The notes: a model not told the origin generated them from the letters alone. A DNA stretch of 63,801 bases, filler included, from Reclinomonas americana ATCC 50394 (GCA_048213135.1; 7 parts of 5 records of this genome joined end to end with filler, not necessarily neighbours in it), one strand, 5' to 3'; positions 1-55,345 are shown, numbered from the whole stretch's first letter. Program-made: numbers and translations.

Positions 1-569
1 CACCGCAGCCACGCCCGCAGGATCGATCTGCAGCTCGGTGAACATGCGCCACATGACAGTGCGGAAGAACAGTGCATCGCCGCGAACGATCACAGTCGTC
101 GGCAGTGCCACTGTGTCGCCGACAATCTTTGCTGCTCTGCAAGTTCACACAGTCAATCACTGATACTCTTTGTCTCTCTCTCTCTCTCTCCTTCTCTCTC
201 CCATGCATTCACCTGCGTGTGAGTGCCGCCTTGTCTGCACTCTGCTCTGGTTCCGCGAGCAGTGCGTGCATGGCGGACTGCACACGTGGAGACTCGACAA
301 TGTCGTGCACATAGTCGCGCAGAGATCGTGTGCGTGGGGCGCGGAGAAAGTCGCTGCTTCTGTGGGGGCGGTGAGTCAATAGTAAGGACCTCGTGAGCGG
401 TGCTGCCCGTGTGTGTGTTGTGCGCGCGCGCTCGCAACTGCATCAGTGTGGCCACCCAGTGGAGAGTGGGGAACCATCGTTGGCGGAGATTGCGCAGGGT
501 CGCGGTGAAGGGACACACGCACACGACGAGCAGAGAGGCGATGAGGGCAAGCAGCAACCACGCCCACAT
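1..569 (-). CDS. Partial (5' end) glycerol-3-phosphate/dihydroxyacetone-phosphate acyltransferase (GNPAT/GPAT, PlsB-like), 3 exons visible
   Basis: ATG at 569 with a hydrophobic N-terminus. Spliced product ...IVESPRVQSAMHALLAEPEQSADKAALTRRAAKIVGDTVALPTTVIVRGDALFFRTVMWRMFTELQIDPAGVAAV resembles the segment preceding the acyltransferase HxxxxD motif of DHAPAT/GPAT. The catalytic motif lies outside the window. Confidence 0.55.
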
Positions 570-696
570 CGTGGATGCAAGGAGGAAGCGATGAATGGAC
601 AGTCGGAGTACGTAGTCGCGAGATGATTCATTCACAGAGAGCTCACCAACAACGCACACACGCGCGCGCACGCATACACACCACGTTCGTGAACTA

Positions 697-3600
697 TTAC
701 TCATCTTCCGGTGGTGGGGGTGGCGGTGGCGGAGGTTGTTGCTCGTCATCTTGGTACGGTGGATCACCGAGCTCGCCGCGATCGAAGCGATCCACCGGCC
801 AGTACGTGGTGATGAGCATGCGACTCATGTATCGACGACCACACAGGTTCGTCTGTGCGCGTTGTGCATCCTGCTCGTTCGCGAACCGAATATACACCTG
901 TGCAGAGGAAGTCAGTCGAGGTAGTCGACAAGTCGCTCTCTTCCATTCCCTCGCCAAACCTTGCCAAGACCGGGAACTTCGGGCTCCGATCGGTAGCCGT
1001 CGCGCATGCGCTTAATCTGCTGCTCTCGCATGCGCTTCTGCTGTCGGATCTGCTCCAGCGCCTGTGCGACAATGGGATTGTCGCGGCGCCCAACAGGCAT
1101 GGGGAAGTCGTCCTCCGGCTCCTCGTCCTCCTGCGGGCGACCACCTCGCATCTCTTCCTCCCGTCGCTTTCGTTCCTCTCTGCGCGTGGCACCAATACAC
1201 ACAGGATGTAAGAGACGAGTGGAGAATCGGTACGCGACAAACGAGAAGGGCGTAACTGTTCCGCGCGGAAACGCTCCACTTCATCGTCGGATGGCGGCTT
1301 CGGCACCACCACATCCAACACTGAGCCAAAACGCGAGGCCTCGTCCCGAATGTCCTCCACCACACTCAGACGGAACTCCTCGTCCTTCAAGTCGGTGACA
1401 TTGACTGCATTCAGCAGCACCAACACTGGAGTCGGCTGCAGTGCATTGGCTGCGGCGGGGAAGGGGAAACTTCATCAATCAACTGCACCTCCACACCACC
1501 ACTGCCAAAACGCGGACACGGTAGCACTCACCAATGTTGCCCGACAGCGACGAAATGACCACCTGCACCGGCTGCTGCATGTTCAAGAAATCTGCACAAG
1601 CCGCGCAAGACGTGTTGTCAGCAGCGTGTCAATCAACAAAATGTCGAGCGTAGCACGACACGCAACGTTCCGCCTTGATATCTTCGGGGTGGCTGCCGAA
1701 AGCACCAGGGGCTCCCACCACAGCACCACCGAGCGGCATCAAGCCAGAGGCGGCGGCATTCTGCGATCACGACGACGGTCAGGCAGGAGGAGAAAGTCAA
1801 GAGAGACTTGACATGGAAAGAGCGTACCCGCAGTCCACTCTGTGCCCGCTGCACCTGGAGCGTCTTGCCACCGAGCTGCACACCATTCAGCTGACTGCAC
1901 ACCACCTCCGTCAACGACTCGTCGACGAACTCGCAGAATGCGTAGCCCTGCACACCGGGTGAGAATGAACAAAGGAAAGAAACAGGGGGGTTGTGGTGCA
2001 CTGCGCACCTTGGAGTTGCCGGTGGCCATATCGCGGCACAGATTGAAACCCTTGAGCGGTCCAAATGTCTGCAGCAATGTCCGCAACTCGTCGTCATTGA
2101 TGCTAGACGCCAGCTGGCCAATAAAGATCTTGTTCGGCGTGTCGGGCACATTGGTGCTGATCACACCGGGGATGTAGGGCACACTCTGCACGTGCCATGA
2201 GAGTTCAATTCTCAGTACATGCGCAGCAACAATGAACACTTGAGAGCATCCGTGACGTACCACACCGCCGCCTTCTGTGATGCCTGGAATCGGCTTGAAA
2301 TTGTTTGGTCGTCGCACCTTCAGCTGCGTGCCCTGCAAGCGCATCAACCCACACATGTCAGCAAAACACACTTCTTCGTCTAGATCAGCAGGCCAACCAC
2401 AGCAGACCTCATAGTGAATGCCGTCCAGAGCCAGCGCCGCAGTGCAATCGTAGGGATCGGCAAACTCCACGAAAGCAAACGACTTGTCGGCCACCACCTG
2501 GGCGGCCACAATCGGCTGGTCGACTCGGCGCGGAACATTCTGGCTCACCATCTGCGCATTGAAAAACAGCACCAGCTCCTCCTACAAATGGTGACACGAT
2601 AACACACTATTAGGCGGCGGCGACGATGTGATGAAGGAGAATGAAAGAGAGATGCCGTGACGCAACTGGTGTAGTGTACGGAGCAATACCGCCAACATAC
2701 AACCGCTTCGCTTGCCTCATCGTGGCCTCGTCGACACCCGGCGGCAGATTCATGGCCGACGCGGCAACTTGGGCGGCCAGCACTGCACAGAACACGAGAA
2801 GTGAACTTCACAGCCACGGCAACGACAGATAAGAGACACGCAACAGTGCGTCTTGTTGAATCCCATGCCCGGCAGCGGTCCGGAGCTGAATCCAGTTGGT
2901 CGGCCAGCACCGAAACCGGCAGACGGCGCTGTGTCCCACAAACTGCGACGATTGGCACTGCAACAAACAAGAGAAAACACACAGTTGTCAGCTTCGAGCT
3001 GGACACCGGAATGGAGACGCGCAGACACACACACACCGCTTGCGCGCAGGAGAGTCGCCACCCGACGGCGATGCACGGCGGCCTGCTCGATCGCGATCTC
3101 TGTTCATCAACGACAGATGAGCGTGACTGCAAAAAAAAACACACGCAACACACTCATGCACGCAACGGCGACGGGCTGCGGTGCCGACGCTCGCGTCCAC
3201 GATCCCGATCACCACGATCTCTGTCGCGGTCGCGGTCACGGTCGCGATCCCTGTCCCTGTAATCGCGATCCCTATCACGGTCGCGGTCCCGGTCGCGGCT
3301 ACTGCCATGGCGATCGCGATCGCGGTCTCGATCACGGTCCCGATCGCGACTGCGATCTCCACCTCTGCTGCTGCTGCCACTGCTGTACCGCGAGTCCTCG
3401 CGATGCCCACCATAGCCATCATCTGCACAGGCGCACAACGGCAGTGAGTGCTGTGCGAAAAAGACAAGGTTCGGGCACATATTGCAATCGCCGACCTCGA
3501 CCCGATCGGTATGATCCACGATCGTCGCCACCCGCACCTCCATGGTAGGCTGGCGGTGGCGGTGCTGGTCCCTCAAACTGTGGTGCACCTCCATCGTACT

Positions 3601-4194
3601 GCTGCGGAGGAGGAGCAGCGTACCCCTGTGCGTGTGTGCGCGTGTGAGTGTAAGGAGTGGAAATGACGCACTCGCACGCCCGTGGAGACGCAACAGGGTC
3701 GTAGTATCCACTGCCGGGTGGCGGTGCATGTGGGCCCTCGGCGGCGTGTGCATACGGGTCGCCCGACGACGACGGAGGCGGGGCTGGTGGCCCCTCATAG
3801 TACTGCACAATGGAGTGAGTGATGGAGAATATGATTGAGCTGTCACCTCTCTATATCTCTCTCCGCGACAATGCAGTGAATTGTGTGTGTGTGAGAGAGA
3901 GAGGGGGAGGAGAGGGCACGCAGAGGAACAAGGCGGCAACATTGACCTGGCCATCACACACACACACACACACAGACAGACAGGCAGACGCCCCGCCAGC
4001 TGCTTCCTCTCCGACGACACCACACCATGCACATGCACACACGCCACCACCACAACCACCACACGCTCTTCTTCCTTCAGACACACAGAGACACGCACAC
4101 AAGATGGAGACAATGCAATCACATATCCCTCCCCGCTGCATTGCCAACTCATTCCCATCACCACATACGGGCAGAGCACCTGCTGGTAAGACAT
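697..4194 (-). CDS. U2AF2: Splicing factor U2AF large subunit (U2AF65), ~16 exons
   Basis: Spliced product has an R/D-rich region, ULM-like RRSLWD, RRM1 (RQAKRLYVGGI...KSFAFVEF...ALALDGIHYEGTQLKVRRP), RRM2 (VPDTPNKIFIGQL...[26 protein letters not shown]) and UHM/RRM3 (VEDIRDEASRFGSV...VPGLGKVYIRF...LCGRRY). All introns can be drawn GT-AG in frame. Confidence 0.95.
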
Positions 4195-4294: not shown

Positions 4295-7200
4295 ATGGTT
4301 GAGTTCCGAAGCGCCGCCGACGCACAAACATACGTGTTACTGCGCGCGGGAGTCGGCATCCGATTCGTCGTCTACGAGGTAAACAAGAAGAAGAAGAAAA
4401 AACAAGGAGGAAGAGATCGCTGTATGTTTTTTTCCGGACGCACTCATGATTTCATTGTGTGAAGGCCGTGCTGGCGACGAGAGACGACGAGCGATCACCG
4501 CTACAGTTGCGCCACGTACACAGTGAGCGATCAAATGCGGCGAGCAAGGCCGGTGGCGATGATAATGAGCTGTTTTCGGCCATGCGACAGTGGATGAGCG
4601 ATGAGCAGGTTCGAGAGAGAGAGAGAGTCGATCGATCGTTCATCACTGTCGTTTTTCTTTGAACACGCAAAACACACACAGGCGTTGTTCGTGGCGGTGC
4701 GAATGGCGTTGCTGGATCGCGGTGGTGTGCGGGCCAAGTACGGTTTGTCGCTGGTTGGTTGTTGGTCTGTCATCACTCTCGGTCGCTCATTCTTCTCTTC
4801 ACCGTTGCAGTGGTGATCTCATGGATCGGATCGCAAGTCGCATCCGCGGTGCGCGATGCGGTGAGGCATCATCGCAGCGGTGGCGTTGCGCAGCTGCTGT
4901 ATGGAGCGCATGTGAGCTTTGAGGTCAACGAGCTGTGTGAAATCAGCAGCGAAGGTTTCGTCGCCTTCTCACTGCACACTCGCGGCCTCCCTGCCTCGTC
5001 ACTTACACACACGAGGTGTAGACATTACGCGTCGGTTGCTGGAGAACTCGGCCGCAGGGTCGCCGTTGGTGAGCGGATCGCGGTCGCCAGTCGTTCCTCG
5101 GTCGCCTGTGCCGGTGCCGGTGCGAGGCACGGTGACTGTGCGTGCGAATTCACCGTTCCGTCGCACACGTGTGTCGCTCGAGAGGCCGCCGTCGGCCACC
5201 GTTCGCAGCACCATCTCACAGCACGATCGCGACAGCGCAGCAGGCAGACGCCGACCAGCGGTGCGTGTGTGTGTTTTCTTCCGATTTGCAACACAGCTCG
5301 TGGATCTCACAGTGTGTGCTGCTTGCTGCTGCTGCTGTTACGTAGTCTGCCGTCAACCCCAGGCGCGACTTTCAGCCTGTCACGTTTGACTTGAGTCAAG
5401 TTGCGTGCGCGCGTGTACCCAGTATCCGGCGAGGGGTCTCATTGTGCTTTCGGTGGTGCGCGTCAGGCAAGCACGTGCGACTCGGAGGTCGCTTCGCAAG
5501 AGTCGCGCGATCTCGACGAGGACGAGTACGTGATGGTGGACGGCGACGATGACCCCAGGCCTGCCGTGTCGGTGCGTGGAGGGACGCGCGACGCGCAGCC
5601 AGTGGCTGGACTTGCACTAGCCGCATCGCATACGGTGAGTCTTTGTGTCACCCGAGTGGATACTCGCTGATTCACACCATGTTGCAACACAGCAGAGGAA
5701 ACTGGTGGAATCAGAAGCAGTTTCGTCGTGCTACAAGCAGCTCTAATTGTTGTGCCACTCAATAGTCGTCTCGTGCTTACAGACTGCGGTACTTCTGGCC
5801 GGTGTCGGCAGTAATCACGTCGACGTTGCGTTTTTCTCTCGCACAGCGTCGCTGTGTTTGCTTAGCACTCACTACTCCTCGATTTGTGTGCGACGCAGTC
5901 ACCGCGCCTGTTCGGTCAAAGCCCCCCACCACTGCCGGTTGCCATGGCCAACGGTGCCTCGACGAATCACATCACACCACCAACGCCGCCGCTTGCCGAT
6001 GCCTTTGTGGACTCGGAGCCACCGACCGTGCAGCTGCCGGCAGTCACTGACGACATTGACGATCGGCGACCGGCGACACCTCCAAAGAGCGTGGCAGTCG
6101 TCGCAGTTGCCGCTGATGACGCGGTGGTGACAATGGAGCTCGAGGCCAGCGATTCGGTCGCAGCGGCACCGATCGCCATGACTCCTCAACCTCCCATGTC
6201 GCCCAAACCATCGCGGCTACCACCACGGCCAGTGCGGTCGCCAACAGCGGTGTCAGCTTCGGCGGAGGATGCTGCGACCATGACTGCAGCGGAAACAGCG
6301 CCACCACCAGTATCACCACGAAAACCGACTTCGTCACCTCGACACCTCACACAAAAGCACGTGACCACCACTGCTTCGGCGCCACCACCACCACCACCAC
6401 CGGCACCACCAGTACAGCAGCAGCAGCACGAGCAGCAGCAGCAGCAGCAACAACAACAACAACAAGATCACCTACAGGACCAGGAGCAAGATCAACAACA
6501 GTGCTCGCAAGTGGAGGAAGAGCAAGTTGTGATGTCGAATTCCGTGAGCGAGGAGGGGGCGAAAGAGGCCGAGCTGGTCGCCTTCCCACCGACGCTGATG
6601 ATCACGCCAGAGGCCGAGATCGACGCCGTGGCGCCGCTGGCGATCGGACTGATTGGACGTGTTGTCGGCGATGCGTTGGGCGTGATCAGTGCGGCTCCGC
6701 CGACAGAGGTCGCACCGGTCGCTGCAGCCGTTGCCGTTGTTGCACCAGCGACTCCCGTCGTGGAGACACGCTCGTCGCCACCTTCGACTCGGCGCGTGCG
6801 CTTCAGCGACGAAGCGCACCCCAGTGTCCAGGCGCGCCCTCGCGACGACGACAGTGATTTGCTCTGCGGCATCTCATTGGTGTCACGTGTCATTGCCGGC
6901 GCGGTTGAGACGACCGCATTGGCAGAAGCGCCTGCCCCGGTGCCGGTTAGCGGCAGTGGCATGCTGGTGTCGCGCATTCTTGCCGGTGCAGTGGAGAGCG
7001 TGGCACATGACACAGCGGCGCCTGCCCACCCGCAAGGCGATCAAGCATCGACACCTCCGCCGGTAAAGGTTCGCGCCGACGACATTAGCTTTGTGGTCTC
7101 TCGATTGGTGACCAGCACGGTGGCGAAGAGCATGGCCGCTGTCGAGGTCGCTGTGCCCGTGCCCGTACCATCCAGTCCGTCAACACCACCACCACCACCA

Positions 7201-7510: not shown

Positions 7511-10784
<3,274 letters not shown>

Positions 10785-10982: not shown

Positions 10983-13307
10983 TCACACAGCATTTGTGAC
11001 ACCAAGACGAAACAGTCGCGCCACGGAGCGAGCCGCTGCAGAGAACGGCGTGACAATGTCTTCGGCCAGGATGCTACTGGCCGCGGCCGAACGGACACTC
11101 GTCGAATCCGGCATACCCTTGACTGGGTCGACAGACACGCGCAGCCACACCTCGGTCGATGCGGAAGAGGTGCGCAGTTTCGTCAAATCGAGAACGACTC
11201 GCCCCGGGAGGTTCAGCTGCGAGAGGTGCGGTGAGAGTGGAGTCTTGCCGCGCACGTACACGAGGCGGAGCGGATGCACCTCAAATGGCGCCCCCTCGAC
11301 AAAGAAATCCATGTACAGCGACTCGCCAGCATCCTGCAGATGACGCGCTGCATGGTTGCTGTTGTGGTGCCACTGCTCCTGGTGCAAGTAGCGACGTGCC
11401 ATGGTGACGTAGTCGTGCAGTCGCAGTAGGAAGAGTAGGTTCTCCGAGCTGTACTCGCGGACGGTCGCTCTGCTCGTGATGGTCAGTCGACACAGTCGGT
11501 GACGAAGATGCACGATCGCACACAACTGCCGAAAAAGTTCTCGGAGCTCGAGGTTGTCGAGAACATCGTGGAGGGATGAGCCTGGCAGCAGTGACTGCCT
11601 CGACGTGTAAGCATTCACACACGTGCGCGCGTACAGGCACGAGACGCAACGTGAGTAATCTCTTCTTCCGACTCTTTCGCACCGGCGTCAAATGGTTCGC
11701 GCCACGGCCACGATGTCACCGTGGCCAGCAGCATGCCAATGGCCAGCAGCTGTGGCGAGAGGAAATAGAAGACCACAAGGCCGTGCTTCTCCGAGGAAAG
11801 CGACAATGCCAGCACCGTCACGTGCACGGGTATGAGCACGCTGTGGTCGCCCGACAAATGAGTGACAGAACAGCTGGCTGCGAGATCGCTAAAACACAGC
11901 CGAACCACAACAGAAAGCCCTGCTTGATGCGATACTCGGTGGCCACCTGTCGCCACACACGCACACACACAGCCATTGTCAGCATTCCGCAGTTGGCCCC
12001 CACCACTCAGACAGCAGAGGAGTGCGAACCCTCAGCACGNNNNNNNNNNNNNNNNNNNNNNNNNNNNNNNNNNNNNNNNNNNNNNNNNNNNNNNNNNNNN
12101 NNNNNNNNNNNNNNNNNNNNNNNNNNNNNNNNNNNNNNNNNNNNNNNNNNNNNNNNNNNNNNNNNNNNNNNNNNNNNNNNNNNNNNNNNNNNNNNNNNNN
12201 NNNNNNNNNNNNNNNNNNNNNNNNNNNNNNNNNNNNNNNNNNNNNNNNNNNNNNNNNNNNNNNNNNNNNNNNNNNNNNNNNNNNNNNNNNNNNNNNNNNN
12301 NNNNNNNNNNNNNNNNNNNNNNNNNNNNNNNNNNNNNNNNNNNNNNNNNNNNNNNNNNNNNNNNNNNNNNNNNNNNNNNNNNNNNNNNNNNNNNNNNNNN
12401 NNNNNNNNNNNNNNNNNNNNNNNNNNNNNNNNNNNNNNNNNNNNNNNNNNNNNNNNNNNNNNNNNNNNNNNNNNNNNNNNNNNNNNNNNNNNNNNNNNNN
12501 NNNNNNNNNNNNNNNNNNNNNNNNNNNNNNNNNNNNNNNNNNNNNNNNNNNNNNNNNNNNNNNNNNNNNNNNNNNNNNNNNNNNNNNNNNNNNNNNNNNN
12601 NNNNNNNNNNNNNNNNNNNNNNNNNNNNNNNNNNNNNNNNNNNNNNNNNNNNNNNNNNNNNNNNNNNNNNNNNNNNNNTCGCGAATGGGCCACAGCTGAA
12701 TGAGGCTTCGCAGAAAAACAAAGAACAGAATCGTGTTGATGGCCAGCGTAAACCCGTAAACGATGCGATAGCCGAGCGCACACTGCCAGACATGCAAGGT
12801 GGCATGAGTACAGCAAAACGATCTCGATCCTCATCGACACGCGCCAACGCAACATCCTCTGGTACAAACTCAAAGGAGTCGACAACACTCGCCGTGCCCG
12901 GGTGCGGATGGGAGACCACCACCTGCGTTTCTCTCACGGTGAACCTCAACGATCGATCTCGCTCCGCGAGTGCCACCGATCACGCAACGATGATCGTGAC
13001 GACGGCGACAGCGAGGATGATCCCCAAGTAGATACGAGTGAGAACCGTCTCACGCATCAGGCGCTGCCAACGCGACTGTGGTCGCACAACTGCCTCGTCG
13101 CCACTGCCCTCGTCGGCCTTGAACATCGAGGCTCCATCGTCCTCCATTCGCTGCTGCTGCTGTTGCTGCTTGTCGGAGATCGCCTTGGACGACGCCGCGC
13201 TGGCCTTGGTGACGTTGAAGACCGCCAGCAAGCGGAACCCGCGCAGCATCGGGCCAGTGACTTGAATGGAGAAGAAGCACAGGAAGAGCGGGTACAGCAG
13301 CGTCTGC
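10983..13307 (-). CDS. 7TM-RGS protein (membrane segments plus C-terminal RGS domain); 5' end lost in gap
   Basis: RGS motifs LHDVLDNLELRELFRQATVREYSSENLLFL...LYMDFFVEGAPFE|LNLP. At least five upstream hydrophobic helices (LLYPLFLCFFSIQ, IYLGIILAVAVVTIIVA, IVYGFTLAINTILFFVFL, FLLWFGCVLAI, VVFYFLSPQLLAIGMLL). Confidence 0.75.
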
Positions 13308-14324: not shown

Positions 14325-17300
14325 CGGAAGAGGAAGCTCTGTGGCTTCACGTCGCTCAGCAGCGAGGTGAACGCGTTGTCACCGTCGCGGAAGAGCCACA
14401 CGTGTCGCAAGGACACAGCCATCACCGGCGAGGTGTGGAATTCTACAGGGAACATCACTTGTTCCTCTTGCTCGCGCACGGCACTGAGGCGGGAGACCAC
14501 CGGTGTCTCCCAGTCGGGGCGTTGACGCGACGAGAACGACATGTTGCCGGCAGCTAGGCGGCCTTCGGTCGACGTCACGCTCGTGGCCAGCACGTGTAGT
14601 CGGAAACTGCGAATCTTGGCATCACTGTCGCCGGGCAGCAATGTCAGCACACTACACGGACTAGTGCGCGCGCGCGTGCGCAGAGACGCAACGAGTAGGT
14701 CACACAGCGGATGCGCAAGTCGTTGACGGAGATGGCGGCCGTCGAGCAGTAAATGCGAGTGTCGGAGTTGGGCGCCACGCTCAGCGCTGAGATGCCGAGC
14801 AACACCTCCGGAACGTGCGCTGGCACAGGGAGATGAGGGCGGTGAGTGTGAATTACTACGATGAGAATGAGGCGAAGTTGCACGTCACTCACCAAACGGC
14901 GGCTCGAACTTGACGAGGTCCTCGTACGTGCGCATGCCGCTGCCGTCGGCGAAACGCGACGGCGCCAGCAGCGTGGGAGTGGCCGTGAAGATGTGCGAGG
15001 CCGCAGCTGTGCGAGCGTCAGCACAACGAGAAGCACAAACTAACAAAAGGGGCGAAGTGAGACACGCACCAGTGCCCACGGCAATCGTGCTGTTCGGCAC
15101 GTTTTCCCACGAGCGGGTGGACTCCTTGTAGACGCACACGTGCAGTGCGGTGCTGCGGGAGGGGTTGAACTTCATGGCAAATCGCTTGCAGTAGCCCTCG
15201 GCGCCACATGCACCAAAGCCGACATCCGGGTCCTTGGCCGAATCGGTCAGCGGCATGGTCACCAGGCCGGCCTCCAGCGGCGACGTCGGTCCGCATGGTC
15301 GGCCCTCGGGAACGAGCGAGAAGCGCGTACATGGCGTGAAATGCGTGCCAATGACGCGCAGCAGGTTGTCCTGTCCAACGTCGGCCGCATTGCGGTTGAC
15401 GCCCGTCGGGATGGCATTGTTCACCTCTGCGCGTGTGCGTGTGTGGCAATCAGCAAATATTCAAAAAAAAAGAAATGGGAGGTGTCGGTGAATCATCAAC
15501 ATACCAGTGATGGCGAATCGCGAGATCTGCACGTACGAGCTGGCGGCGCCGGCCAGTCGCAAGCAGAGACGAGCGTCCGTGGTCGGCTGCGCCACCGCCG
15601 TGCAATCACCGCGCGTGTCGACTTCCTGTATTTGATGAAAGAGAACAATTTAGCAAAAATGCGTGCAAGAAAATGACAAGCGGCTTCCCCACTCAGGGTA
15701 CTCACCAGGGACACCGTGTCGGCCATGAGGCCGGCGGGCTTGACACGGGTATTGGCGACCGGGGTGGGCTTGTTGCAGTCGGTGGACGACAAGATGGCGG
15801 CCTCCGCGTCGTCGACCAAATTCGGCAACAAGCGCGCCATGACCACGACCTTGGCGCTCACCAAACCTCCGGGCACGGCGACCGGACTGACCACCGGGTT
15901 CACTGTGCGTGTGCGGAGACAGGAGAAGGAATCAGCAAAATAAAATAAAAATGAAAGCAGTGCAAACAGAATGACGCAACAAATGTGGAAACGACTGCCC
16001 TTTAGCGGCATGTAGGGACCGCCGACGGCCGGGTCCGGGTGCGTGCACAGGTACAAGTCATATGCCGCATTGCGTCTGCACCATTCCGCGCGTGTTAGAG
16101 AGAGAGAGAGCGGAGTAAAGAAAAATGAGACAATGGGGGACCTACCGAGCAGAAATATCAAACGAGAGGGTCAGCTTGTAGGAGCTGTTGGTGCCCACGT
16201 ACTGCTGCGAGACGACCGTGACGGGAATGTCCTGGTTGGGCAGCACGGTGACGGAGCACGCCGCATCGCGTCGCAGCACGTACGCCACATTGGTGTAGGG
16301 TGCATTGCGGTCGAGGAACTATCCAAAAAGATCAAAAATTAGCAACCAGTCCAAAGGAAAGATTCGTGAACGCAGATACACACGGTACCTGTCCAGTCAG
16401 CGTGAGCACGGTTGGCGTCGGGCTGCTGACCAGAATAACATCACGACTGCGGAACGAGGCAAAAAAATTCAGCCACGGGGTCGGGGGAGCGAGCGGTAAG
16501 AACTATCTGACATGCACGCAACGGCTGGTCCACGCAGAACTCGACAAACGAGATCTTCCAGAAGTGCACCTTTGGCACCACCTTGTTCTGTGCCTCCCGA
16601 TCGGCCACATTCAGCGTCCACCTGCACACCGACACTCTTTGGTTGAGCACACCAATTTATGCGGAAAAAAGTTGCTCACGTGTCATGGACGCAACATTCC
16701 GCCGACCTCCAGCCCGTCGAAAGCCGCAAACGACTCCGCCGGGCGGAAGTCATGCGCCGCATAGATGCGGTCGTCGGCGTTGACGTTCTCGTAGCTGCCC
16801 CACGACACCTCCTGAATGGAGCCCTCGAGACCGTACTCCCAAAACCACACTGAAAACCCACTGCGAGAGCCTCCGGTGCCATTCAACAGCGTCACCGTCT
16901 GCGCACATGTGCACACAAGAAGGAGGTGGCAGATTCAGAAAACATGCGACGCACACACAGAGAGAATGTGCACACCGCACCTTGCCAGATGGATGAACGA
17001 GCTGCGCAACCACATCTCGCGCAAAATGCGCCTCAATGTCTGTGCACGCGCATGAGAACGAGACACGCTACACGCACACACACATTGACACGCGCGCGCA
17101 CACACACCAACGTGCACATAAAAGCCGGCTCGGTCAAACAATTGCCCACTGTGCGTAGTGTCATCATCATCATGGCCATTGTGAGAATCTTGCAATATTT
17201 CCGCAGTGGCTCTCTCTCACACGCACGCACACACACACATTCTCTCTCTGTGAGTGAGACGCAACGGATATGCGGGCTCCAAGAGCAGCGAGTTTGAAGT

Positions 17301-24636: not shown

Positions 24637-24727
<91 letters not shown>

Positions 24728-44000: not shown

Positions 44001-47000
44001 AGCACCACACCGCGCAACGGCGACGACAAGTCGATGACACGATAAAAGTACGTGGTGGAGGGGAGCAGTGGCGACGCTGTGAGTGACATGGGGTTGTTCC
44101 CGGCAGGAATCGTGGGTATGATCGAGTCGGCGAGTTTGATACGCCGCACGACATTGTTCCCCGTATCTACCACACATGCAGAACGATAAGCAACAAGGGG
44201 ACAGCCAAGATAAGTATGCGAATGGTGAGCGGAAGCGACACGAACCGGCTACGAACAGAGCTCCCGATTTGATGGAATCAAGAACGAGAGCGCCCTGGTG
44301 TCAGCAGCAGCAGAAAGCATCAGTGAAGCTCACTCAAAGACAAGATCCCTCGACAGCAATCTCACGAAACTGGACTGCGGAAGCTGGCACTCGTCGCTGG
44401 ACCATCAGCAGCACCCGCCAACGATAGCGCACTCGACAATGACGTCGTCACTTGTCCAGTGGCAGCATCCACTTGCCGAATCGCATGATTGGCAGTCTGC
44501 AGAAAGGAATATGAGACGCTACTTGCACTCTACAATGCAACTCAATAAACGCAACATCCGCCACATAGAGAAGACCACCGAGGACGTCCAAAGCCACATC
44601 AGATGGGCTGCTGAATCGTGCATTGGTGCCGATGCCGTCGGCGAGCGCAGGAGCGGCCGACATGTTACCAGCCACCGTGGTCATGATTCCCGACTGCAGA
44701 TTGAAGCGACGAATGGCATTGTTCCCGGTGTCAGCCACATACAATGCACGTGCCACCGGATCGAGGGCCAGTCCAGATGGGTGATTGAGCAAGGTGGCGG
44801 ATGAGCCAACAGTGCCCGCTTGACCAACGAGGGTGGTCGTCACACCGACAATGGACACGCGCCTGCAGCAATGATTGAGGGAGACGACAAAGAGAGGCAC
44901 GATTAGCAATAGTGCGAACCGCACAACATGGTTGCCCCAGTCAGCCACATAGATGCATTCTTGGGCGTCAACGTAGTCCATGGCCAGACCACGTGGACTC
45001 GACAGCTGCGCGGCGGCGCCAATGCCATCCGTGAAGGCTGGTCGACCGCTTCCAACCACAGCGTACACAGTGCCGGCGGCCAGTCGACGCAATGCGTGAT
45101 TGTTGCTCTGATTCACACACACAAGAAAAAACAATGAGTGAGATAAGCAAAGCATGCCGCCTACACATCAGCGTACGCACATCCGAAATGTAGACTTGCG
45201 CCGAATACGCGTCGACAATGACATACGATGGGCTGCAAAACAGACAAACAGTGAGTAAATGGCGAAGCGCTCGAAAATGAGCACATGCAGGCAGACCTGG
45301 AAAGCCTGGCTGTAGTCAGCGCTGCACCGTTGATGAAGCCGCTGACCATGGGCTGTCCGGCCAGTCGAACAACGGCACCAGTTGTCGAGTCAATGGAGCT
45401 CACAGTGTGTTGGCTGATACAAATGTCGTACGATGAGTGGAGCTCATTAACAAATATGGGATGGTCAAACACCCACCTCGCATCGACGACAACCAAGTTC
45501 CCCACACTGTCCACCGCAACGCTCTGTTCCACAACAGCAGTAGTGAGCGAGCAAACAATGCAAGTCAGCGGGTACGAGCGATGTGCACTTGCAAGCTGCT
45601 GACGCCAGCGGCAGGTACGGTAGACACTTGCGGTGATGAGCCGAACGCATCCGACGTGAGCGCAATGGAGAATCGCGGATTGGCTGACGGTGCGCCGTTG
45701 AGGACCAGCGACGCTTGCAAGATAGCAGACATAGCGGCAACATTGGTCGCCGCCACAGTCGACAGCAGCGGAACTGCAAACGCGCGATCGCGAGTGAGCA
45801 ACATCATGCAACATGCGTCACAGAGAAAGAATGCCCAAAAAACTACGTACGTGTGGTGGTGCTTGTGCGTGAGATCGTTCCACGTTGTGTCGATGTTGTG
45901 TCTGTCAATCGGTACAGGTACGTGGAGTTTGGCAGCAACCCGGTAGCAATGGCGCTGAATTGGTTGGCGGTAGACGTCGCCGAGCCGCCGAGACGCCACG
46001 AGGGGAGCGAGATCCGTCGAATTGCATTCGAGGCTGCCAACAAAATGTCAGTGAATGTCGAACGGTGAGGCAACAAGTCTCACAGTACGCACTGACGACG
46101 GCCAGAGAACCCTGTTTTTGATTGACGCACAGTCCGCGCTGCATGGGAGACGATAGACGCAACATGAGAAGCTCACTGACACTCCACCGCAAGAGTGCCC
46201 ACATACCAAATCGCTGAATTGCGCCGTGGCGGCAGCGCCGTTTGCATATCCTGCTTGGCCAGCCACGCCAGCCACCGTGGTGACGGTTCCGTCGCTGGTC
46301 GATACCAAACGGATTATCTTGTTGCCAACCTGCAACAAGAGAGAGAAAAGGGAAGTGAGCGCTTGAAAAGCAACAGGACGAGCGAATCAGACAACGAAAC
46401 GTCGGCCACATAGAGGACATTTGCCAGCGGGTCCAGATCCATCGTTTCAGGCTGGTTGAAGCGCGCAGCCGACGCAACGCCATCCGCCGTGCCGGTGGAA
46501 GACATCATACCCGCCAGTGTGGACACGGTTCCAGTGGCCAGCTCGATTGCACGAATGACAGAGTTGTTGCGATCGGCCACAAACACGAGTTGACGGGAGA
46601 CATCCACGGCCACGGCCATGGGCCCGTTGAAGCGTGCAGTCAGTGCGGTGCCATTTGAAGTGCCGCTAACGCCAGCTTGGCCCGCCACGGTGGTGGTGAC
46701 TCCCGAGAAAGACACACGACGGATAAGATGATTGCCAAAGTCGGCCACATACACGCACTCACGACCGGTGCTGTTGTCGATGGCGATGCCGCGCGGCTGC
46801 GTAAATGATGCAGCAGTGCCGGTGCCGTCCGCGGCCCCACCGCTACCAGTGCCGGTCAGTGTCGACATGGAGCCACCAGTCACACGCCGTACCGCATGAT
46901 TGCCGTACTACAATGACAATCATATGAGATTGTCGCGAAGGAGAGATGAACCAAAAAAATGCGCCACCCAACGCAACATCGGCAACGTAAGCGTCACCCG

Positions 47001-50000
47001 TGGCCACATCGACTCTGACATGCATCGGACTGCAACGCATCTCTGTCAGCATAAAAAACAACCACGTAAGAGCGCATCAAAAGAAAAAATGCACGAAACG
47101 ATCGCAGGGTGGCCGTGGCAAGTGCACCGTTGGTGAATCTGGAGATGCACATGTTGGTTCTCTCGTTAGTAATGGAAACATTACAAGTAATCATCACAGT
47201 AATCAGCGTACTGACCCTTCCATTCCCAGCAATCCAGCAAAGGTGGACACGGCGCCCGACGCGGACACGAGTCGAATAGCGTGATTGCTGCGCAGAATTC
47301 CGACATGAGGTACAATTGTTGTCATTTCCAAATCAGCAAAGCAAACGCACCCAGCGTCAGCCACATACACATTCCCGCTCCCATCAGAAGCCGCACCCTG
47401 TGTGCGTCACACACAGAGAAGGGAGGTCAGTGACATCGTCCAATGATGGAAAACAATGCGTGCAGGCGACGTACAGCAGGCTGGTTGAAACGCGCCGAGG
47501 CACCAATAGCCGAGTCGGTAGATCCAGTGCTGGCTGGATCGCCTGCCAACGAAGTCACCGACATAGAGGACAGGAATTGCGTCTGTTGCGTTGCCAGCTC
47601 AAACACAGGTTGAGCAGCGACACTCGCAACCACGGTTCCCACAAGTGTCATTGCATTGTGCGACACCGCGGTGGCTTGCCCAGTGGTCACCGTGGGCGCT
47701 TCGCAGAATCGAAATGCGTGTCAACCTCAAACGTTCTGAGAGCAGGAATCGCGACAATATGAAACTCACCCGACAGCGTGGTGAAATTAAGCACCGAGCC
47801 GTGTGTGCCATTGTCGAGACCAACACGGAAAACATATGCGGCCTGTGGACTGAGTTGACCGATTGATAAACTCACAGCGGCGCTGCTGGAACCAGTGACC
47901 GAGGGTGGGGAGCCAGCAATATCCGGTGCCGGAATGGTCACTCGCCGCACAGTGTTCGTCCCATCTGTGAATGCGGAGGTGAGTGAGGTGGGAGAGGGGA
48001 GAGGGAGGGAGCAAAAGAAGTGACACTGCACCTGAAACTAAGAGAGCCATGTTCGTGACATCAAATGCAACACCGATCTGTCACCTCACGATGAGCAATG
48101 ACGTCAAGCTGACCCACGACACGAGACACAAACCGGCGACGTGAAACGAGTCGCAGATGCATCTCCAGATGAGGATCCGGACGTTCCTGCCAAGCCCAGC
48201 AAGGTGCGCACAGTGCCGTTGGGTGAAACCTGACGAATAATGTGACTGTCCGTCTGTGAAAAAAACGAGAGAATGGAAAACACCATGAGCAGCCAGAACC
48301 CATCACTTGAGAAAACACAGTGATTCGCAACATCGGCGACAAACAGCGTGCCGCTCACAGGATCCAATGCGAGTCCGTTGGCAGCACTGAACTGTGCCAC
48401 CGACGGCGGCCCATCCACGGCACCCGCCAAGCCACTCCGTCCAGTCACCGTCGATACAATCAAAGTGGCGAGGTCCATGCGCCGAACCGAAAACGAACCC
48501 GAATCCAACACAAAGAGCACACTGCGCGCAGCATCCACCACCACGGCGGTGGGGGCGATAAGCCTCGCATCGATTCCGACACCGTCAGTGGATCCAGCTG
48601 CGGCTGCACTGCCGGCGACAGTCGTCACGCTGCCAAACACCGTAACCATTCTACATGTATTGAAACATAAGTGCAAGAGAAGCGAGCAATCACCGTCATC
48701 GCCACAGGCGCTCACCGAATCGCGTGATTGTCCTTGTCGGCAACGTATATCAACTGCGTGCGAGGATCCACAGCCACACCGGTGGGGTGATTGAGTTGCG
48801 CCGCAGAAGCCACACCATCGCTGCTGCCGACGGATCCATTGCCACACACGGTGGAAACCGAGCCACCAGATACAAGTCGCAATGCATTGTTGCCAGACTG
48901 TGATAAACAACAACATGAGCAACAATAGGGACAAGGTCCGCACTGCCAGACTCTTGCTCACCTCGACAATGTACAAATCACCAGAAGTGTTATCAACAGC
49001 CACACCATACGGACTACACAAGCAGCAAATTAGGGAGAGGCCAGAAAACCGGCAAGAAAGGATGAATAACAAACAGACCCATTCAGCGTTGCCGTTGCAA
49101 CGGGACCGTCCACCATGCCGCTAGAGCCTCGCACACCAGCGGCGGTGGTGACATTGCCAGCGGTGTCCATTTTGCGAACCAATGAATTACTGCATGGTGC
49201 AAGTCAGATGACAAGTGGTTGACGACAAACGACGATCGCAGAGCAACACAACTCATATTCCGCAATGTAGACGTTGCCGCTGATGTCCAAGCACACGTGC
49301 TGGTGGAGAAAAAATATTGTTGGTGAAGATTGCACACACAACATCTCCGCGTGATGAGCACATACCCGCATGCCGTGGAAGGTGGCCACGTTTCCTGCAC
49401 CATCTGCGCTGCCAGTCATGCCAACCGATCCGGCAACCAACGACGATGTCACGCTGGCGGTCAATGCAGAAACTTGGCGAGCAACATTGAAGGCCGTCGC
49501 TACGGGCTGACTGCCACCAGCGTTTACGGTGCCATTAAGGACGGCCGTTGTAGATGCCACACTTGTCGCCGCAGCAGTCGCGACAGTGGCACCTACGTGG
49601 CGCAATAAGCGGTTCTCATCGGGCACGCGCAAGAAGAAAGCAAACATGCATTCGATGCAAACCTGGCGTGGTAAACGGCACAGAGGAGCTACGGTAGGTG
49701 CCAGCCGCCACTCGCACGTTGTATGTTACCGCTGGTTGCAGTCGCTGCACCGCTGCCGACACTGCGACATCAGTGCTGCCGGAGGCAACAGACGACGGCG
49801 TGCCGGGAATAGAGGAGGCAGGTAGTTGTACTTGTCGGATCACGTGACCTGCTGCGTCTGCGGAGGTAGTGAGAAACACAAGTACAGCTGCGGAAACAAT
49901 CATGCACGGGCATCTGATCTTCACCTGCAACAATCAAGCTCTGGGTGGCCGCCGAGAACTCCACACCCCGCTGTGAACAGCTGGTAAGTATCGCGGCACT

Positions 50001-52019
50001 CAATTGCATGCGAGAGAGAGTGAAAACACCAACCAGCTGCTGGAATCTGCTGCTCGAACCATCGCCAACTGCCGATCCACTGACTCCGTACGCTCCAGCC
50101 AGTGTGCTCACCATGCACGACGGAGAGATCACACGCACCACATTACTCTGATACTGCAACACAGAAGGGGGGAGAAAGTCAGGCACGAACTCGCTTTGTA
50201 ACAGCTGAACTGCGATAACGCAACGTCGGTTGCGTAGATATTTCCCGAGTACGGATCAAATGCGAGTCCTCGAGGAGAATCAAACACAACAGCCGTGCAT
50301 GGGCCGGCCACAGTATTCACAGCACTGGCGCCTCCGGCAAATGTCACGACCTCCATCGTTAGCAGATTCAGCCGCCGTATCGCATGGTTGCCAACATCGC
50401 CAATGTATAGCATCGAGTTCTGGACGTCAAGCGCCAACGCGCTGGGTGCGCTGAAGCGAGCAGCACTGCCGGTGCCATCTGCACTCCCTGACACAGTTGC
50501 AGTCCCGGCAATGGTCGTCACCGTGCCATCGAAGGTCACTTGCCTGCGAGCGAGAAACGGGAGAGGGAGTGAATGAGTACAAGGCTGAAATCGGGAAGCA
50601 CGAAGTGTGTGATAAAATGGAGGGGGAAAAAAGGGAGTGCACAAATGCCAGGTATCGTTCACAGGACAACACACACACGAATAAGATAAAGCCACCGTGG
50701 CACGTACCGAATAGTGTGAGATGCCGTGTCGGCAACGTAAAGGACTCGAGCGAGGCAACTGGCGGCCACCGCACTCGGTGAATTGAACTGAGCAGATGGC
50801 GAATCGCTGCCGCCTGCCCCCAGTCCAGCAAGAGTTGACACGTAGCCAGATGCCCATCGTCGAATCTTGTTGTTGCCGTTCTGCGATGACACCAACAAAG
50901 TCGATAAGCACGCACAGGTCTTGCTCCATAACCCCCACCGCCCACGCACATCGACGATAAAGAACTCCGCCGAGGCATCACACAGATCAATGTCGATAGG
51001 ACTGCAAAACGAGAAGCAAATCATTAAGGAGTAGAAAGACATTGAGGGACAAGCACGAATCGCAACCAACGCAACGTATTCAGCGTGGCCACAGAAACGA
51101 GACCGTCAACACTGCCAGCGGTGTATGGCTTTCCGACCACGGTCGTCGTGTCACCGGCGGTGGAGATCTTGCGCACGGTATGCGTGCTACACATATGCAC
51201 CGGGACGTGAGTAGCGCGCAATATCATGAAACACGGCAAGGAAACGAAGCGCAACGTGGAGTCCCCAACGTAAGCGTTGCCCAGAAAGTCAACTGTAACA
51301 CCCTGCACAATCCCATCGTCGCAGGAAAACACAATCGTAATCAGCAAGAAAAGTGGAATCCCGCACTAACGCACCGTAAGAACAACTGCGACACACCGTC
51401 GGTGACTCAAACTGCGCAGCAGCACCAGAGCCATCGACATTGCCGCCCAATGAACCCGCCAGCGGTGCAACAGTCGCAGGTCGGTCGAATGCGCCGGTAA
51501 CTTGCGCCAACTCGAAGGCCACTGCCAGAGGACCACCTTCGTGAACATTCACCAAGCCGTTCAAGGTGGCCGATGTGGACGACAAATTGGTGGCTGCTTG
51601 TGCAGCTGTCGAGGGCGCTGTATCGACGAAATGTAGAGTGAGTTCAAGCAAGGCACGCAATCACACTGAAGACTAGCAGAGTCCAACAAACGTACCGAGC
51701 GTCGTGAATGATAAAAGGTTTCCACGTCCAGACGAGATTGTGTCTATCAAGCGGAAAAAGTATGACGACTGGGGCAGCAGTGCTGCGAGGGAGAGAGACA
51801 CTGCAGTGCTCGTCGTTCCTGTGACCGAACTCGGGGACGCCACAAGCGTACTTGGCGGCAATGAGATACGTCGCACAGTTTCGCCTTGTGGCCCTGCCGA
51901 CACGAATGTCATTGGTTCGAGTAAATGAACATACAACGCAGTGAACGCAAGTACACACCGGCGACAAGCAGACTCCAGCTCGTGGTGTCAAAGGCCACAC
52001 AAGCCTGTTGACGCGCAAT
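38083..52019 (-). CDS. Ectodomain of the giant receptor: FN3-like/NHL-propeller units, EGF repeats, ~7 IPT/TIG-like Cys modules, FN3-like and REJ-like domains
   Basis: NHL repeats (ARFNGPMAVAVD...VFVADRNNSVIR) at 44150-51950. EGF cluster CQCPAGRYGRRC...CSNGGTCDDGVQGSGLCRC...CQNGGACSDGVTGNGSCSC at 43440-43790. ~110-aa modules ending Y.VCVD...+.VG at 40500-43360. FN3-like TGLLPNTNYTFSV. REJ-like VDPD...VFNWGCTVDGVDC. Confidence 0.8.
39075..39375. repeat. (CACT)n tetranucleotide microsatellite in an intron
   Basis: Long CACT/CTCA run. Confidence 0.95.
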
Positions 52020-52119
52020 NNNNNNNNNNNNNNNNNNNNNNNNNNNNNNNNNNNNNNNNNNNNTTAATTAATTAANNNNNNNNNNNNNNNNNNNNNNNNN
52101 NNNNNNNNNNNNNNNNNNN

Positions 52120-52292
52120 GGGGGGAAGCGACAGGAAGGAAGCGACAGGGGGGGAAGGGACAGGGGGGAAGGGACAAGGGGGAAGCGACAAGGGGGAAGC
52201 GACAAGGGGGAAGCGACAGGGGGGAAGCGACAGGGGGGAAGCGACAGGGGGGAAGCGACAGGGGGAAGCGACAGGGGGGAAGCGACAGGGAA
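52120..52292. repeat. Minisatellite, ~13-14-nt unit G(5-6)AAGCGACA
   Basis: About 12 tandem copies of GGGGGAAGCGACA and variants. Confidence 0.9.
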
Positions 52293-52436
52293 GTAGAGAA
52301 GGAGCAGCACGATGAACGGCGGGGTGGGACGAGGCGAGAAATAACCCTCGCACTGGACAGCGCAATGAGTAGCAATGCTTCCTCTCTATGGCTCTCTCTC
52401 TCTCTCTCACACACACACTCTCCCTTCACCCTTCCG

Positions 52437-55345
52437 CACCTGTCAGCCACGAAAATATCCCCCGCCGAGTTCACCGCCAATCCAAGCGGATAGAAGAATC
52501 GAACGGCCGGGCCAGTGCCCTCAATGTATCCCGGACCATTGGCGCCGCCAGCATACGTAGTGGTCACCCCAGCCGCAGTCGTCACTCGTCGAATGCCGTG
52601 GTTATTGTTGTCACCAACGTACAGCACGTCGCCAAGGGCACTGATTGCCAGACCCATCAAATTGTTGAAGCGTGCCGACGTTCCCGTGGCATCAGTGGAG
52701 CCAGACGTTGTCGATCCCGCCAGAGTCGTCACCACACCGGCTGCCGTGATGGCGCGAATCATGCGATTATTCGAGTCGGCCACGTACACGATGCCAGTCG
52801 GGCCGACGACAACGCTGGTGGGGCCTGGGCGAGAGCAAGAATAAAGTGAGCAGCGAGTAGTATGAAAGGGAAACGATAATGCAGAGCGATGAGAGGGAGA
52901 CGAATCAAGAACGGTGGAAAGAGCGAAGAAACGCGAACGAGAAGAAAGAGTGGTTGTAATTTGACTGCATTTCTCTCGACGAATATCAAACCAGTGCTCT
53001 CCAAGTCTGGTGCACGCAGCAAGCTCACTGCTCCTTACCCTCATGAGCTCTTGCCCTCTGTCTCTCCGGAAAGCACGTGAGAAGGAAGTCAGCCTATCGA
53101 ATGGACAGTGCAGAACTCTCTGTGAGAAAGGCAGTACTCTGATTATCAAGCCACTTTCGTGCTGCTCCTCCAATCTCCTTCTCTCTCTCTGCCTCTCTCG
53201 TTATTCTCTGTCTTCTCCCTCTTCCTCTCCTCCTTGTATCTCTTGATTTGCTTAACTGAACTCACCATTAAACGTCGCAGCAGTACCAGTGCCATTGGCC
53301 GACCCTGCTACGCCCGTGGCGCTGCCGGCAAACGTGGATACAGAACCGGTCGACACGACAATCTTGCGAATCGTGTTGGAGTCCGTGTCGGCGACATACA
53401 TGTTCGCGATGGCTGTGTCTGTGGCCACGTCGCCCGGGTTGCTGAGCACACCCGGCACGCCGCTGCCAATACTAGCAGTGCCAGCAGTGCCCGCAAATGT
53501 GGTCACCACGCCGGCAAGCGTCACCTGCGAGGAACATGTGCATCAGGAAGGGTGAAGAGAGAGTCTCCAGAATGCAACACATCGCACACCTTGCGAATCG
53601 TGTGAGCGCCGGAATCGGCAACCCAGATCGTATCCGTGGAGTCAATACCAACACCGCGCGGTCCGTTGAATTGAGCACCCGTCGATGTGCCGTCTGCCGT
53701 GCCCGGCGTGCCCACTTGACCGGCCAACGTGCTGGTCACTCCAGCGGCAGTGACGTACCGGAGGGCGTGGTTGCCGGTCTGAACAGGGAAAGACGGAGGA
53801 AGAAGCAAGGGACAACTGAGGAACAAGGACGGTGGACATGCACAAATGGAGAGCGCAATAAACGACAAGGATATTCACACGAAGCGATAGTCATCGGAAC
53901 CAGAGACAAATGAGAGCGCGAGAGAGGGAGCGAGGAAAAGACGCATGGAAACAGACACTAACAGATTGTGTGACGCAAGAGGGATACCCAGAAGAAGACA
54001 AACAAACAAGTAATACGATTGGTGAAGAGCGAACGAGAAAACGACTGAAGAACGCCTCTGCCAGCGATCCAGACAAAGCACAACCAAGCATTGAGACACA
54101 CAATCCTGGCTCTGCCTCTGCCACCTCGCTTTCCCCACACTCCCTTCGCTTCGTCACGCAACATCGGCGACCACCACATTACCCATCGAGTCGACCACCA
54201 CGTCGTTCGGGTTGTTGAGACGGCCGGGTGAGCCATTGGTGGAGCCGGCGTTGCTGACGGAGCCGGCAAATGTGTTCAACGCCGGCGTAGCGGCAATGTA
54301 CCGGCGAATGGCATTGTTGCTGGAGTCGGCAATGTACACGGTGCCGGCCTTGTCGGATCGACAGCTGCGCGGGTAGAACATGCGACCCAGCGGCATGGCG
54401 CCAGTGCCGTCAGCATAGCCAGACCAGCCGCACCGACCTGTTCCCCACACACACACACACACAGAGGTGAGCAGGCAGCTCGTGATGCATGGGAAACGAT
54501 AAGTACGCACCGGCAACCGATGTCACAGCATACGGGGCGGTGGTCGACACGCGGCGCAAGCAGTGCCAGTTCTGATCGAGAACATAAAAGTAGCCGGTGC
54601 CATCGAGGCAGCCACCGACTGGCAAATTGAACACGGCACTCGTCCCGTTGCCGTCAGCGGGCGTGCTGAGTGCAGTCGTGCCGGCAACCGTGGTCACAAC
54701 GCCGCCGGGAACCGTCACCTGGCGATTGATAAAGTTACAAATATTCAGGAGACCAACAATAATAAGAAAAGAGAGCGCGAAAGACGCAACAGTCTTGATG
54801 AGGCGATTGTTCGAGTCGGCCACCCACGCCACACCATTGGTCGAGTCAACAGAAATTCCAAATGGCTGCAGCAAGGTTCAACAAGAGCAACACCAACAAC
54901 GACGACGACGCAGGAAAAAAAAACGAACACTATTGAACCGGGCAACACTGCCAGTGCCATCGACGTTGCCCGGGGTACCTGCCGAACCAGCAATGGTGGT
55001 GACCACGCCGCCGGGAACGGTGACACGACGAATGGTCGAGTTGTCGTACTGCAGCGCGGGTGAGACGATGGGATGAGAGATGCGCGTGTGTGGTGAAATG
55101 CGCAACATCGGCCACGTAGAGCGATGCGGTTACTGTGTCGTAGTCGATGCCGGCGGGATTCTGCAATAAAGAGTGAATAGCCAGCATTGATCTGCCAAAG
55201 CGGCTCCATGAGACCGACCTGAAAGCGCGCCGCGCTGCCCGTGCCGTCCACACTGCCCGACGAGCCACACGTGCCAGCCAGTGTCGTGACAGCACCAATG
55301 GGGCTACCGGTGATGGTGACCTTGCGGATGCAGTGATTTGCGGTC
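52437..55345 (-). CDS. NHL-repeat exons (roughly a dozen repeats); N-terminal part of the giant receptor or a separate NHL gene
   Basis: Repeats such as VYVADSNNRMIRAITAAGVVTTLAGSTTSGSTDATGTSARFNN and MYVADTDSNTIRKIVVSTGSVSTFAG. The contig is bounded by artificial joins, so its linkage is unproven. Confidence 0.8.

Follow-up and report, generated by a model that had tools for sequence, protein, structure and literature searches.

In animals, 5′ splice sites that are read out of register are rare exceptions, which have been proven singly with suppressor U1s. Shifted and bulged registers of U1 pairing have been described at human sites, where, in the available part of the source, all validated types of non-canonical register together make up 1.5% of 201,541 sites and 68 bulges at +2/+3 are predicted (PMC4856993, Table 3). 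In Caenorhabditis elegans, the +1 G>T change of unc-73(e936) makes a GU at −1, which is used, and the compensatory U1 sup-39 raises the use of both the −1 site and the original site (PMC11098459, in the text available of it). Here, we analyzed a stretch of 63,801 bases (the window) from Reclinomonas americana ATCC 50394 (GCA_048213135.1; seven parts of five records joined end to end with filler), in which an initial annotation had pointed to introns whose 5′ splice site (donor) carries the local consensus behind one extra T, GTTGCG or a variant instead of GTGCGT and its like. We call the common donors class A and the displaced ones class B. About a quarter of the predicted donors in the window belong to class B, and the choice between the two classes appears to depend on the last base of the exon (position −1). 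In the Creative Commons papers of PubMed Central and in bioRxiv we found no description of a lineage with a common displaced donor class.

Class B shares features with each of the described systems and departs from each of them. Human +1 shifted sites (Roca and Krainer, 2009, as given in the part of PMC4856993 available) likewise start with GUU and have the consensus displaced by one base; in them, as in the reading of class B that we favor below, G+1 replaces the exon-end G opposite C9 of U1, with cleavage at the GU. However, human shifted sites are rare, whereas class B comprises approximately 20-25% of predicted donors here and is preferred after exons that do not end in G. In addition, the displaced core UGCGU of class B pairs poorly with the standard U1. 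The accessible text on unc-73(e936) and sup-39 (PMC11098459) shows the same G/UU context (the slash marks the exon-intron boundary), and a GU one base upstream of the junction expected from the U1 register is cut; that case, however, is a mutant allele with an out-of-frame product, while class B is in-frame, conserved and wild-type in many genes. The bulged +2/+3 register (Roca 2012 and Tan 2016, through the available portion of PMC4856993) also has an extra U between the GU and the paired part, but it keeps and favors G at −1, which is found in 0/27 class B donors. Finally, the division of donors into AG//GUNNN and NN//GURAG types resembles the present one in that a weak exon side is offset by a strong intron side. 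Those two types use one register, whereas the class B motif is displaced (C+5, G+6) and not merely stronger.

The window has a G+C content of 40-60% per 4-kb segment, contains 4,176 N in 23 runs and holds approximately ten multi-exon genes, several of which are paralogues or internally repeated. All junctions were inferred from gene parses, reading frames and homology. A donor was assigned to class A if it reads GTNNG and to class B if it reads GTTNNG without G at +5. Genes were parsed by dynamic programming, run on each strand. The donor-agnostic parse used only GT..AG ends, self-trained codon usage, an acceptor matrix and an intron-length curve, and it returned 107 introns, of which 62 are class A, 20 are class B and 25 are neither. 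For the self-trained parse, a two-component donor mixture was added as the donor model before re-parsing, which yielded 108 introns, of which 72 belong to class A, 27 to class B and 9 to neither; this donor model includes position −1, so the −1 counts from the self-trained parse are biased and not independent.

The displaced motif is present wherever it had been listed: all 31 coordinates start with GTTGCG, GTTACG, GTTTCG, GTTGTG or GTTGAG on the strand given, and the preceding base is G in none of them, as had also been claimed. Counted over both strands, there are 44 copies of the heptamer GTTGCGT, 34 of them on the minus strand, where most of the genes lie, against an expectation of 13.1 ± 3.9 from dinucleotide-preserving shuffles, none of 100 of which reached at least 44. 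The enrichment is specific to T at position +3, with minus-strand counts of 34 for GTTGCGT, 4 for GTAGCGT, 5 for GTCGCGT and 10 for GTGGCGT, and this rules out that just any base can be the extra one. The motif is also selected as a donor. Class B patterns represent 3.7% of all 7,923 GT sites and 18.7% (20/107) of the agnostic donors (p = 2.6e-9), an approximately fivefold over-selection by a parse that is blind to the donor, and GTTGCG alone rises from 1.0% of GT sites to 13/107 agnostic donors (p = 6e-11). A two-component mixture fitted to the agnostic donors resolved G/GTGCGT (65%, with G at −1 in 66%) and h/GTTGCGT (35%, with G at −1 in 7%), with a Bayesian information criterion (BIC) of 3499 for two components versus 3525 for one.

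The claim that the listed sites, about 30 in number, are intron donors stands for most of them. The agnostic parse uses 13 of the 31 and the self-trained parse 20, and five more (1256, 3694, 14692, 51255 and 37456) are supported through open, positively scoring flanking frames or through the model of the U2AF2 gene. At the other six (438, 11526, 11650, 17265, 36451 and 39974), the motif is present and its use as a donor is only putative. Beyond that list, the self-trained parse contains seven further class B donors, at 5825(+), 60535, 56160, 49252, 48331, 38583 and 20793. The position of the cut is constrained by the reading frame, since moving it so that the exon keeps the G brings in an earlier stop in 26 of the 27 class B introns. 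Predicted cleavage before the G is thus required by the frame, and an intron that starts with TT after an exon-retained G is ruled out. These observations bear on the explanation that class B is an artefact of gene modelling, with the true junctions elsewhere or the sites unspliced. The inferred nature of the junctions leaves room for it, and so do the 11 of 31 first-listed sites that the parses missed and the noise in early versions of the parse. The over-selection by the donor-blind parse speaks against an artefact, as do the loss of frame and three results described below: a homology test at junction 2666, the open U2AF2 frame and the restoration of a repeated protein motif. We therefore give this explanation almost no credence, and the analysis confirms, at the level of predicted junctions, a second donor class in which the local consensus is displaced by one T.

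The two classes differ sharply in the base that precedes them. In the agnostic parse, G stands at −1 in 44/62 class A donors and in 1/20 class B donors (Fisher p = 1.3e-7), and the one deviating donor, 51066, lies in the downstream copy of a motif that occurs twice in tandem; the self-trained parse uses 51075 instead. The difference persists in the agnostic parse when only the region below 43 kb is counted, which leaves out a set of NHL-repeat genes (19/29 versus 0/10, p = 4e-4). The self-trained parse, with the bias stated above, gives 60/72 for class A and 0/27 for class B. As the initial annotation had noted, exons that do not end in G sometimes use normal donors: 12 of the 72 class A donors in the self-trained parse follow such an exon, so that after non-G exon ends class B is used 27 times and class A 12 times. 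The composition of −1 in class B (A 22, C 41, G 0, T 37%) resembles that of −2 in class A (A 19, C 32, G 15, T 33%). Among the predicted junctions, donor class therefore depends on the −1 base.

The gene for the large subunit of U2AF, U2AF2, lies at 697-4194 on the minus strand (the strand of all genes, introns and donor sites below unless (+) is given). Our hand-built model comprises 15 introns and a single open frame of 703 residues with an RS region, two RRMs and a UHM, and it scores 480 bits against a hidden Markov model (HMM) of 40 homologues. The introns are all GT-AG (15/15), 14 of them 61-85 nt and one 377 nt long. The division of donors reported for this gene was reproduced, with 6/15 shifted donors that follow t, c, t, a, c and a and 9/15 normal donors that follow G, and the frame is open only when all six class B donors are cut at the GT. 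In transcriptional order, the first is the in-frame intron 3626-3694 in a low-complexity region (t/GTTGCGT), which is in the hand model and in neither parse. It is followed by 3100-3166 in the RS region (c/GTTGCGT, with a second GTTGCGT 17 nt inside the intron; self-trained parse and hand model), 2783-2844 (t/GTTGCGT; both parses and hand model) and 2582-2666 in RRM1 (a/GTTGCGT). The last two are 1592-1666 in the linker (c/GTTGCGT; both parses and hand model) and 1180-1256 in a UHM insert (a/GTTACGC), which is supported by its flanking frames and the hand model and is in neither parse.

The junction at 2666 is confirmed by homology. Among 121 frame-compatible GT/GC..AG pairs, it has the highest score with the homologue HMM (97.4 bits), and with free boundaries it ranks second of 161 distinct peptides, the top one of which needs a CA..GT intron. 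The GT that lies five bases further downstream has lower homology scores, which rule it out as the true donor. The flanks at 1666 and 1256 are not conserved, so homology scoring there says nothing. The best matches of the U2AF2 protein, from fungi, amoebozoans and vertebrates, are 45-52% identical. One U2AF2 exon gave no match in a word-indexed protein search, and a metagenome scan for U2AF2 relatives gave four loci, the best being a contig of 40% GC with 56% identity in one exon, which is too distant for a comparison of donors. The UHM also carries a highly charged insert of approximately 73 residues, encoded by its own exon (960-1179) between the introns at 1256 and 959. This exon may be alternative, because the homologue profiles score higher without the insert.

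A second line of evidence comes from two tandem paralogous genes, gene 16 (18450-21841, 12 predicted introns) and gene 17 (14625-17179; 14644-17179 in the pairwise comparison), which are 37% identical over 532 residues and have nine intron positions in common, with the same phases. The upstream paralogue, gene 16, encodes an H-type lectin domain in the exon 19237-19473 (E = 8.6e-8), and no Pfam family matched the rest. At the nine common positions (eight aligned ones and the pair 19234/14692), the predicted donor class follows the −1 base at 18/18 donors. Three positions are class B after non-G in both genes, three are class A after G in both genes, and at the remaining three the copies switch, such that the copy after non-G is class B and the other copy follows G and is not class B. 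The introns 21024-21105 (a/GTTTCGT), 20852-20918 (c/GTTGCGT) and 20380-20450 (t/GTTGCGT) of gene 16, which are in both parses, are homologous to 16622-16695 (t/GTTGCGT), 16447-16522 (c/GTTGCGT) and 15903-15980 (t/GTTGCGT) of gene 17, which are in the self-trained parse. In the three switches, t/GTTTCGT at 20722-20793 of gene 16 (both parses; absent from the first list) is matched by g/GTACCGT at 16388, a/GTTGCGT at 19476-19548 of gene 16 (both parses) by g/GTGCGT at 15069, and c/GTTGCGT at 14625-14692 of gene 17, whose acceptor is the best of several, by g/GTGAGT at 19234 in the same phase. Gene 16 contains one further class B intron at 21560-21629 (a/GTTGAGT; both parses). The donor g/GTACCGT (intron 16319-16388) has G+6 and T+7 after an extra C, together with an exon-end G, at a position where the paralogue is class B; it may represent a different one-base displacement, with the extra base at +4/+5.

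The co-variation of predicted donor class with the −1 base between the paralogues bears on the explanation that no special recognition is involved. The extra T would then be a neutral slip from GT to GTT, and the heptamer would be due to descent or mutation bias. A one-base insertion in an intron has no reading-frame cost, and many of the counted sites are in repeats or paralogues, both of which would suit a neutral origin. However, such a slip does not account for the strict dependence on −1 or for the near-invariance at +4 to +7. It is also at odds with the conservation of class, including three concordant switches, between paralogues of 37% identity whose intron bodies give no blastn-short match to each other, and the introns of the window share no similarity beyond microsatellites. 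We regard a neutral slip as very improbable.

A third set of class B donors is found in an array of NHL-repeat coding sequence at 44362-55371, which is covered by four models that are split by the parse and by gaps. Many of the NHL repeats have an intron directly after the codon that completes ..VAD, and splicing at the class B donors restores the spacing VAD-x-x-N-H-x-I-R of the intronless repeats in the same NHL genes. The intron after ..VAD is class B in seven cases, where the codon is GAT or GAC, and class A in two cases with GAT and where the codon is GAG. The class B introns found by both parses are 55049-55106 (t/GTTGCGC after ..YVAD), 53779-54162 (t/GTTGCGT after ..VVAD, 384 nt), 50154-50224 (c/GTTGCGT after ..YATD), 48254-48331 (t/GTTGCGA after ..FVAD), 46330-46400 (c/GTTTCGT after ..YVAD) and 44497-44555 (t/GTTGCGT after ..YVAD), as well as a variant at 49190-49252 (a/GTTGTGT); those at 49252 and 48331 are additions to the first list. 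The self-trained parse adds 51002-51075 (c/GTTGCGT, with a second GTTGCG 9 nt downstream) and 46908-46977 (t/GTTGCGT after ..YVAD). At 51187-51255 (c/GTTGCGC), splicing restores the repeat motif ..YVGDSTTHTVRKI.

A (TCAC)n microsatellite of approximately 79 copies (39061-39376) adjoins the 3′ part of an EGF/NHL gene. Six pairs of 44-N blocks, 12 bases apart and beside larger N runs (24736-24835, 37983-38082, 52020-52119, 55632-55731, 59792-59891 and 61891-61990), resemble masked stretches, not ordinary scaffold gaps, and interrupt NHL-gene coding sequence.

Apart from the donor, the introns of the two classes are alike. The median length is 72 nt in both, the acceptor scores are similar (p = 0.25), and each class is present in all three phases. 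Every class B intron (27/27) has CAG or TAG as its acceptor, and 51/72 class A and 20/27 class B introns contain a CTVAY branch motif 8-45 nt from the 3′ end, at a median distance of 24.5 nt. With their GT-AG ends, their fit to the frame, a branch-like motif and a YAG acceptor, class B introns would be ordinary U2-type (major) GT-AG introns. In U12-type introns the donor is (A/G)TATCCTT and the branch site is near the 3′ end. Class B donors without exception have the form GTT(G/T/A)(C/A/T)G, and this, together with the distance of the branch motif, rules out the U12 type. Introner elements, the copies of mobile introns, are also ruled out. When the 108 introns were compared all against all with blastn-short, 15 hit rows were obtained, each an exact match of 13-16 nt and several of them overlapping within one pair; since there are only such short matches, with no lengthwise similarity beyond microsatellites, class B introns are not copies of a mobile intron. 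The donor motif itself is stricter in class B, with T at +3 and G at +6 in 100% (both by definition), G at +4 in 85%, C at +5 in 93% and T at +7 in 93%, compared with G at +3 in 64%, C at +4 in 47%, G at +5 in 100% (by definition) and T at +6 in 76% of class A. The variants of one class are mirrored in the other one base later: GTTGCGT and GTGCGT, GTTTCGT and GTTCGT, GTTGAGT and GTGAGT, GTTACG and GTACG, GTTGTGT and GTGTGT.

On balance, and with moderate confidence, we favor the reading that class B introns are of the ordinary major GT-AG type and that recognition of their 5′ splice site is displaced by one nucleotide. At the common class, G/GUGCGU, a guide RNA would pair with the exon-end G, then with G+1 and then with UGCGU; the guide would presumably be the 5′ end of U1 and afterwards U6. 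Wherever the coding sequence precludes an exon-end G, one extra U would be present in the intron (/GUUGCGU), with G+1 occupying the slot of the exon-end G, U+3 acting as U+2 and GCGU being read at +4 to +7. Cleavage would still occur before the sole GU, one base upstream of the junction predicted by the register of the guide. The adaptation to UGCGU would lie in the U1 of the organism or in a second U1 species that has A opposite U+2. Such an adapted or second U1 is likely, because the standard U1 hardly pairs with GUUGCGU and the conserved C+5 needs a non-standard partner. The initial annotation had proposed shifted or bulged recognition as a mainstream mode of this lineage, possibly brought about by a variant U1 or U6 or by altered proteins of U1 or U5. 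The class that depends on −1 is borne out and the shifted form is favored, whereas "this lineage" and "mainstream" extrapolate from one window.

The bulged form differs in that U1 would pair normally with G+1 and U+2, after which U+2 or U+3 would bulge out and pairing would resume at GCGU. In humans, the register with a bulge at +2/+3 has been validated (68 predicted sites in the accessible part of PMC4856993), the two adjacent U's would let the bulge migrate, and cleavage at the GU would need no special explanation. However, a bulge leaves −1 opposite C9 of U1, so that G would be expected there as in class A (60/72), and the class B counts are 0/27, or 1/20 versus 44/62 in the agnostic parse. 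Because a bulge should favor G at −1 in this way, the shifted register is preferred. In addition, the paralogues show class A once −1 is G, and the human U1 5′ end forms no stable bulged duplex with class B. A bulged register is therefore rather improbable.

Pairing was calculated by nearest-neighbor folding with the 5′ end of human U1 (sequence from PMC4856993), and the outcome weighs against the shifted reading that we prefer, as do the points that follow it. With this U1 end, class B forms no stable duplex whatever the register (median +0.5 kcal/mol), compared with medians of −6.5 kcal/mol for class A after G and −2.6 kcal/mol for class A after non-G, and only 3 of the 27 best class B duplexes place G+1 opposite C9. 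A single U1 of any sequence would pair with class A after non-G at least as well as with class B; a plain shift with one U1 thus fails to explain the preference for class B after non-G (27 versus 12). G at −1 is scarcer in class B than a slot resembling −2 predicts (0/27 versus approximately 15%). Every junction is a deduction from sequence, and 2666 is the sole class B junction confirmed by outside homology. Moreover, the counts are gene parses of one window, in which the NHL repeats and paralogues are not independent and 6/31 sites are motif only.

Some of these difficulties would be met by two U1 species, of which the second, with A for C opposite heptamer base 2 and full complementarity to GUUGCGU, would serve class B. 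We treat this as one particular form of the shifted reading and consider it possible, although unlikely. It would fit the stricter motif of class B, the C at +5 (93%), which cannot pair with the standard U1, the scant pairing of the standard U1 5′ end with class B, and the preference for class B over class A after non-G, which a single U1 leaves unexplained and for which a second U1 with A opposite U+2 would account best. In the worm, the suppressor sup-39 is a U1 of this type that increases the use of a GUU-type site, according to the part of PMC11098459 available. No U1 gene was found within the window: a search for small nuclear RNA genes gave no Rfam family at gathering scores and, at E ≤5, six weak unrelated matches, with no U1, U5 or U6 among them. 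A strict motif can also come from protein contacts or from U6, and few known RNA sequences are as conserved as the 5′ end of U1, which also counts against a second species.

The remaining class B introns are scattered over the window. In both parses there are 60466-60535 (a/GTTGCGT) and 38518-38583 (c/GTTTCGT), and in the self-trained parse 56072-56160 (c/GTTGCGT) and, on the plus strand, 5825-5898 (+) (c/GTTGCGT) and 22266-22346 (+) (c/GTTGCGT); all but the last are new with respect to the first list. The intron 37456-37518 (+) (t/GTTGCGT) has open and positive coding frames on both sides and a good acceptor. The putative donors with the motif only are at 432-438 (a/GTTGCGA), 11520-11526 (a/GTTGTGT), 11644-11650 (c/GTTGCGT), 17259-17265 (c/GTTGCGT), 36445-36451 (c/GTTGCGT) and 39968-39974 (t/GTTGCGT). 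Second copies of the class B motif at 3143-3149 and 51060-51066, 17 and 9 nt downstream of the donors 3166 and 51075, are possible alternative or reserve donors.

Elsewhere in the window, a gene at 7949-10784 (+) with five class A introns encodes a TMEM260-like protein O-mannosyltransferase, whose best database match is a protein of the jakobid Andalucia godoyi (35% identity). No close relatives of the U2AF2 and TMEM260 genes were found in any of the collections searched. A weak match to snoTBR2, a trypanosomatid family of C/D-box small nucleolar RNAs (snoRNAs), covers the full model length at 5573-5672 (+) (25.9 bits, E = 1.2). It lies within a predicted class A intron of 211 nt (5572-5782), three times the usual length, and may be an intron-hosted snoRNA. 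The gene-poor tract of approximately 12 kb at 24000-36000 is pyrimidine-rich on the plus strand, with a GC skew of −0.38 to −0.45, and contains (CT)n runs and degenerate CT-rich repeats of 69-163 nt.

If the pattern holds genome-wide, a large share of the introns would use out-of-register reading under a simple rule, in which an exon-end G is followed by a normal donor and any other base by a donor with one extra U. Gene finders with a single donor matrix would mis-predict approximately one quarter of the introns in such a genome. The stronger proposition, that there are two parallel 5′ splice-site codes read by two U1 species that differ opposite +1/+2 (C versus A), is a tentative one to which we assign a minor chance. 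If it is true, the organism would be a natural, genome-wide counterpart of sup-39, in which approximately one quarter of the introns would be defined by a U1 register one base downstream of cleavage, while U6 and Prp8 would set the cut at a later stage, at the sole GU. A genome-wide pattern would also offer hundreds or thousands of natural sites for studying how cleavage is fixed after U1 leaves, and a system for how U1 and U6 handle a spacer that is one base longer.

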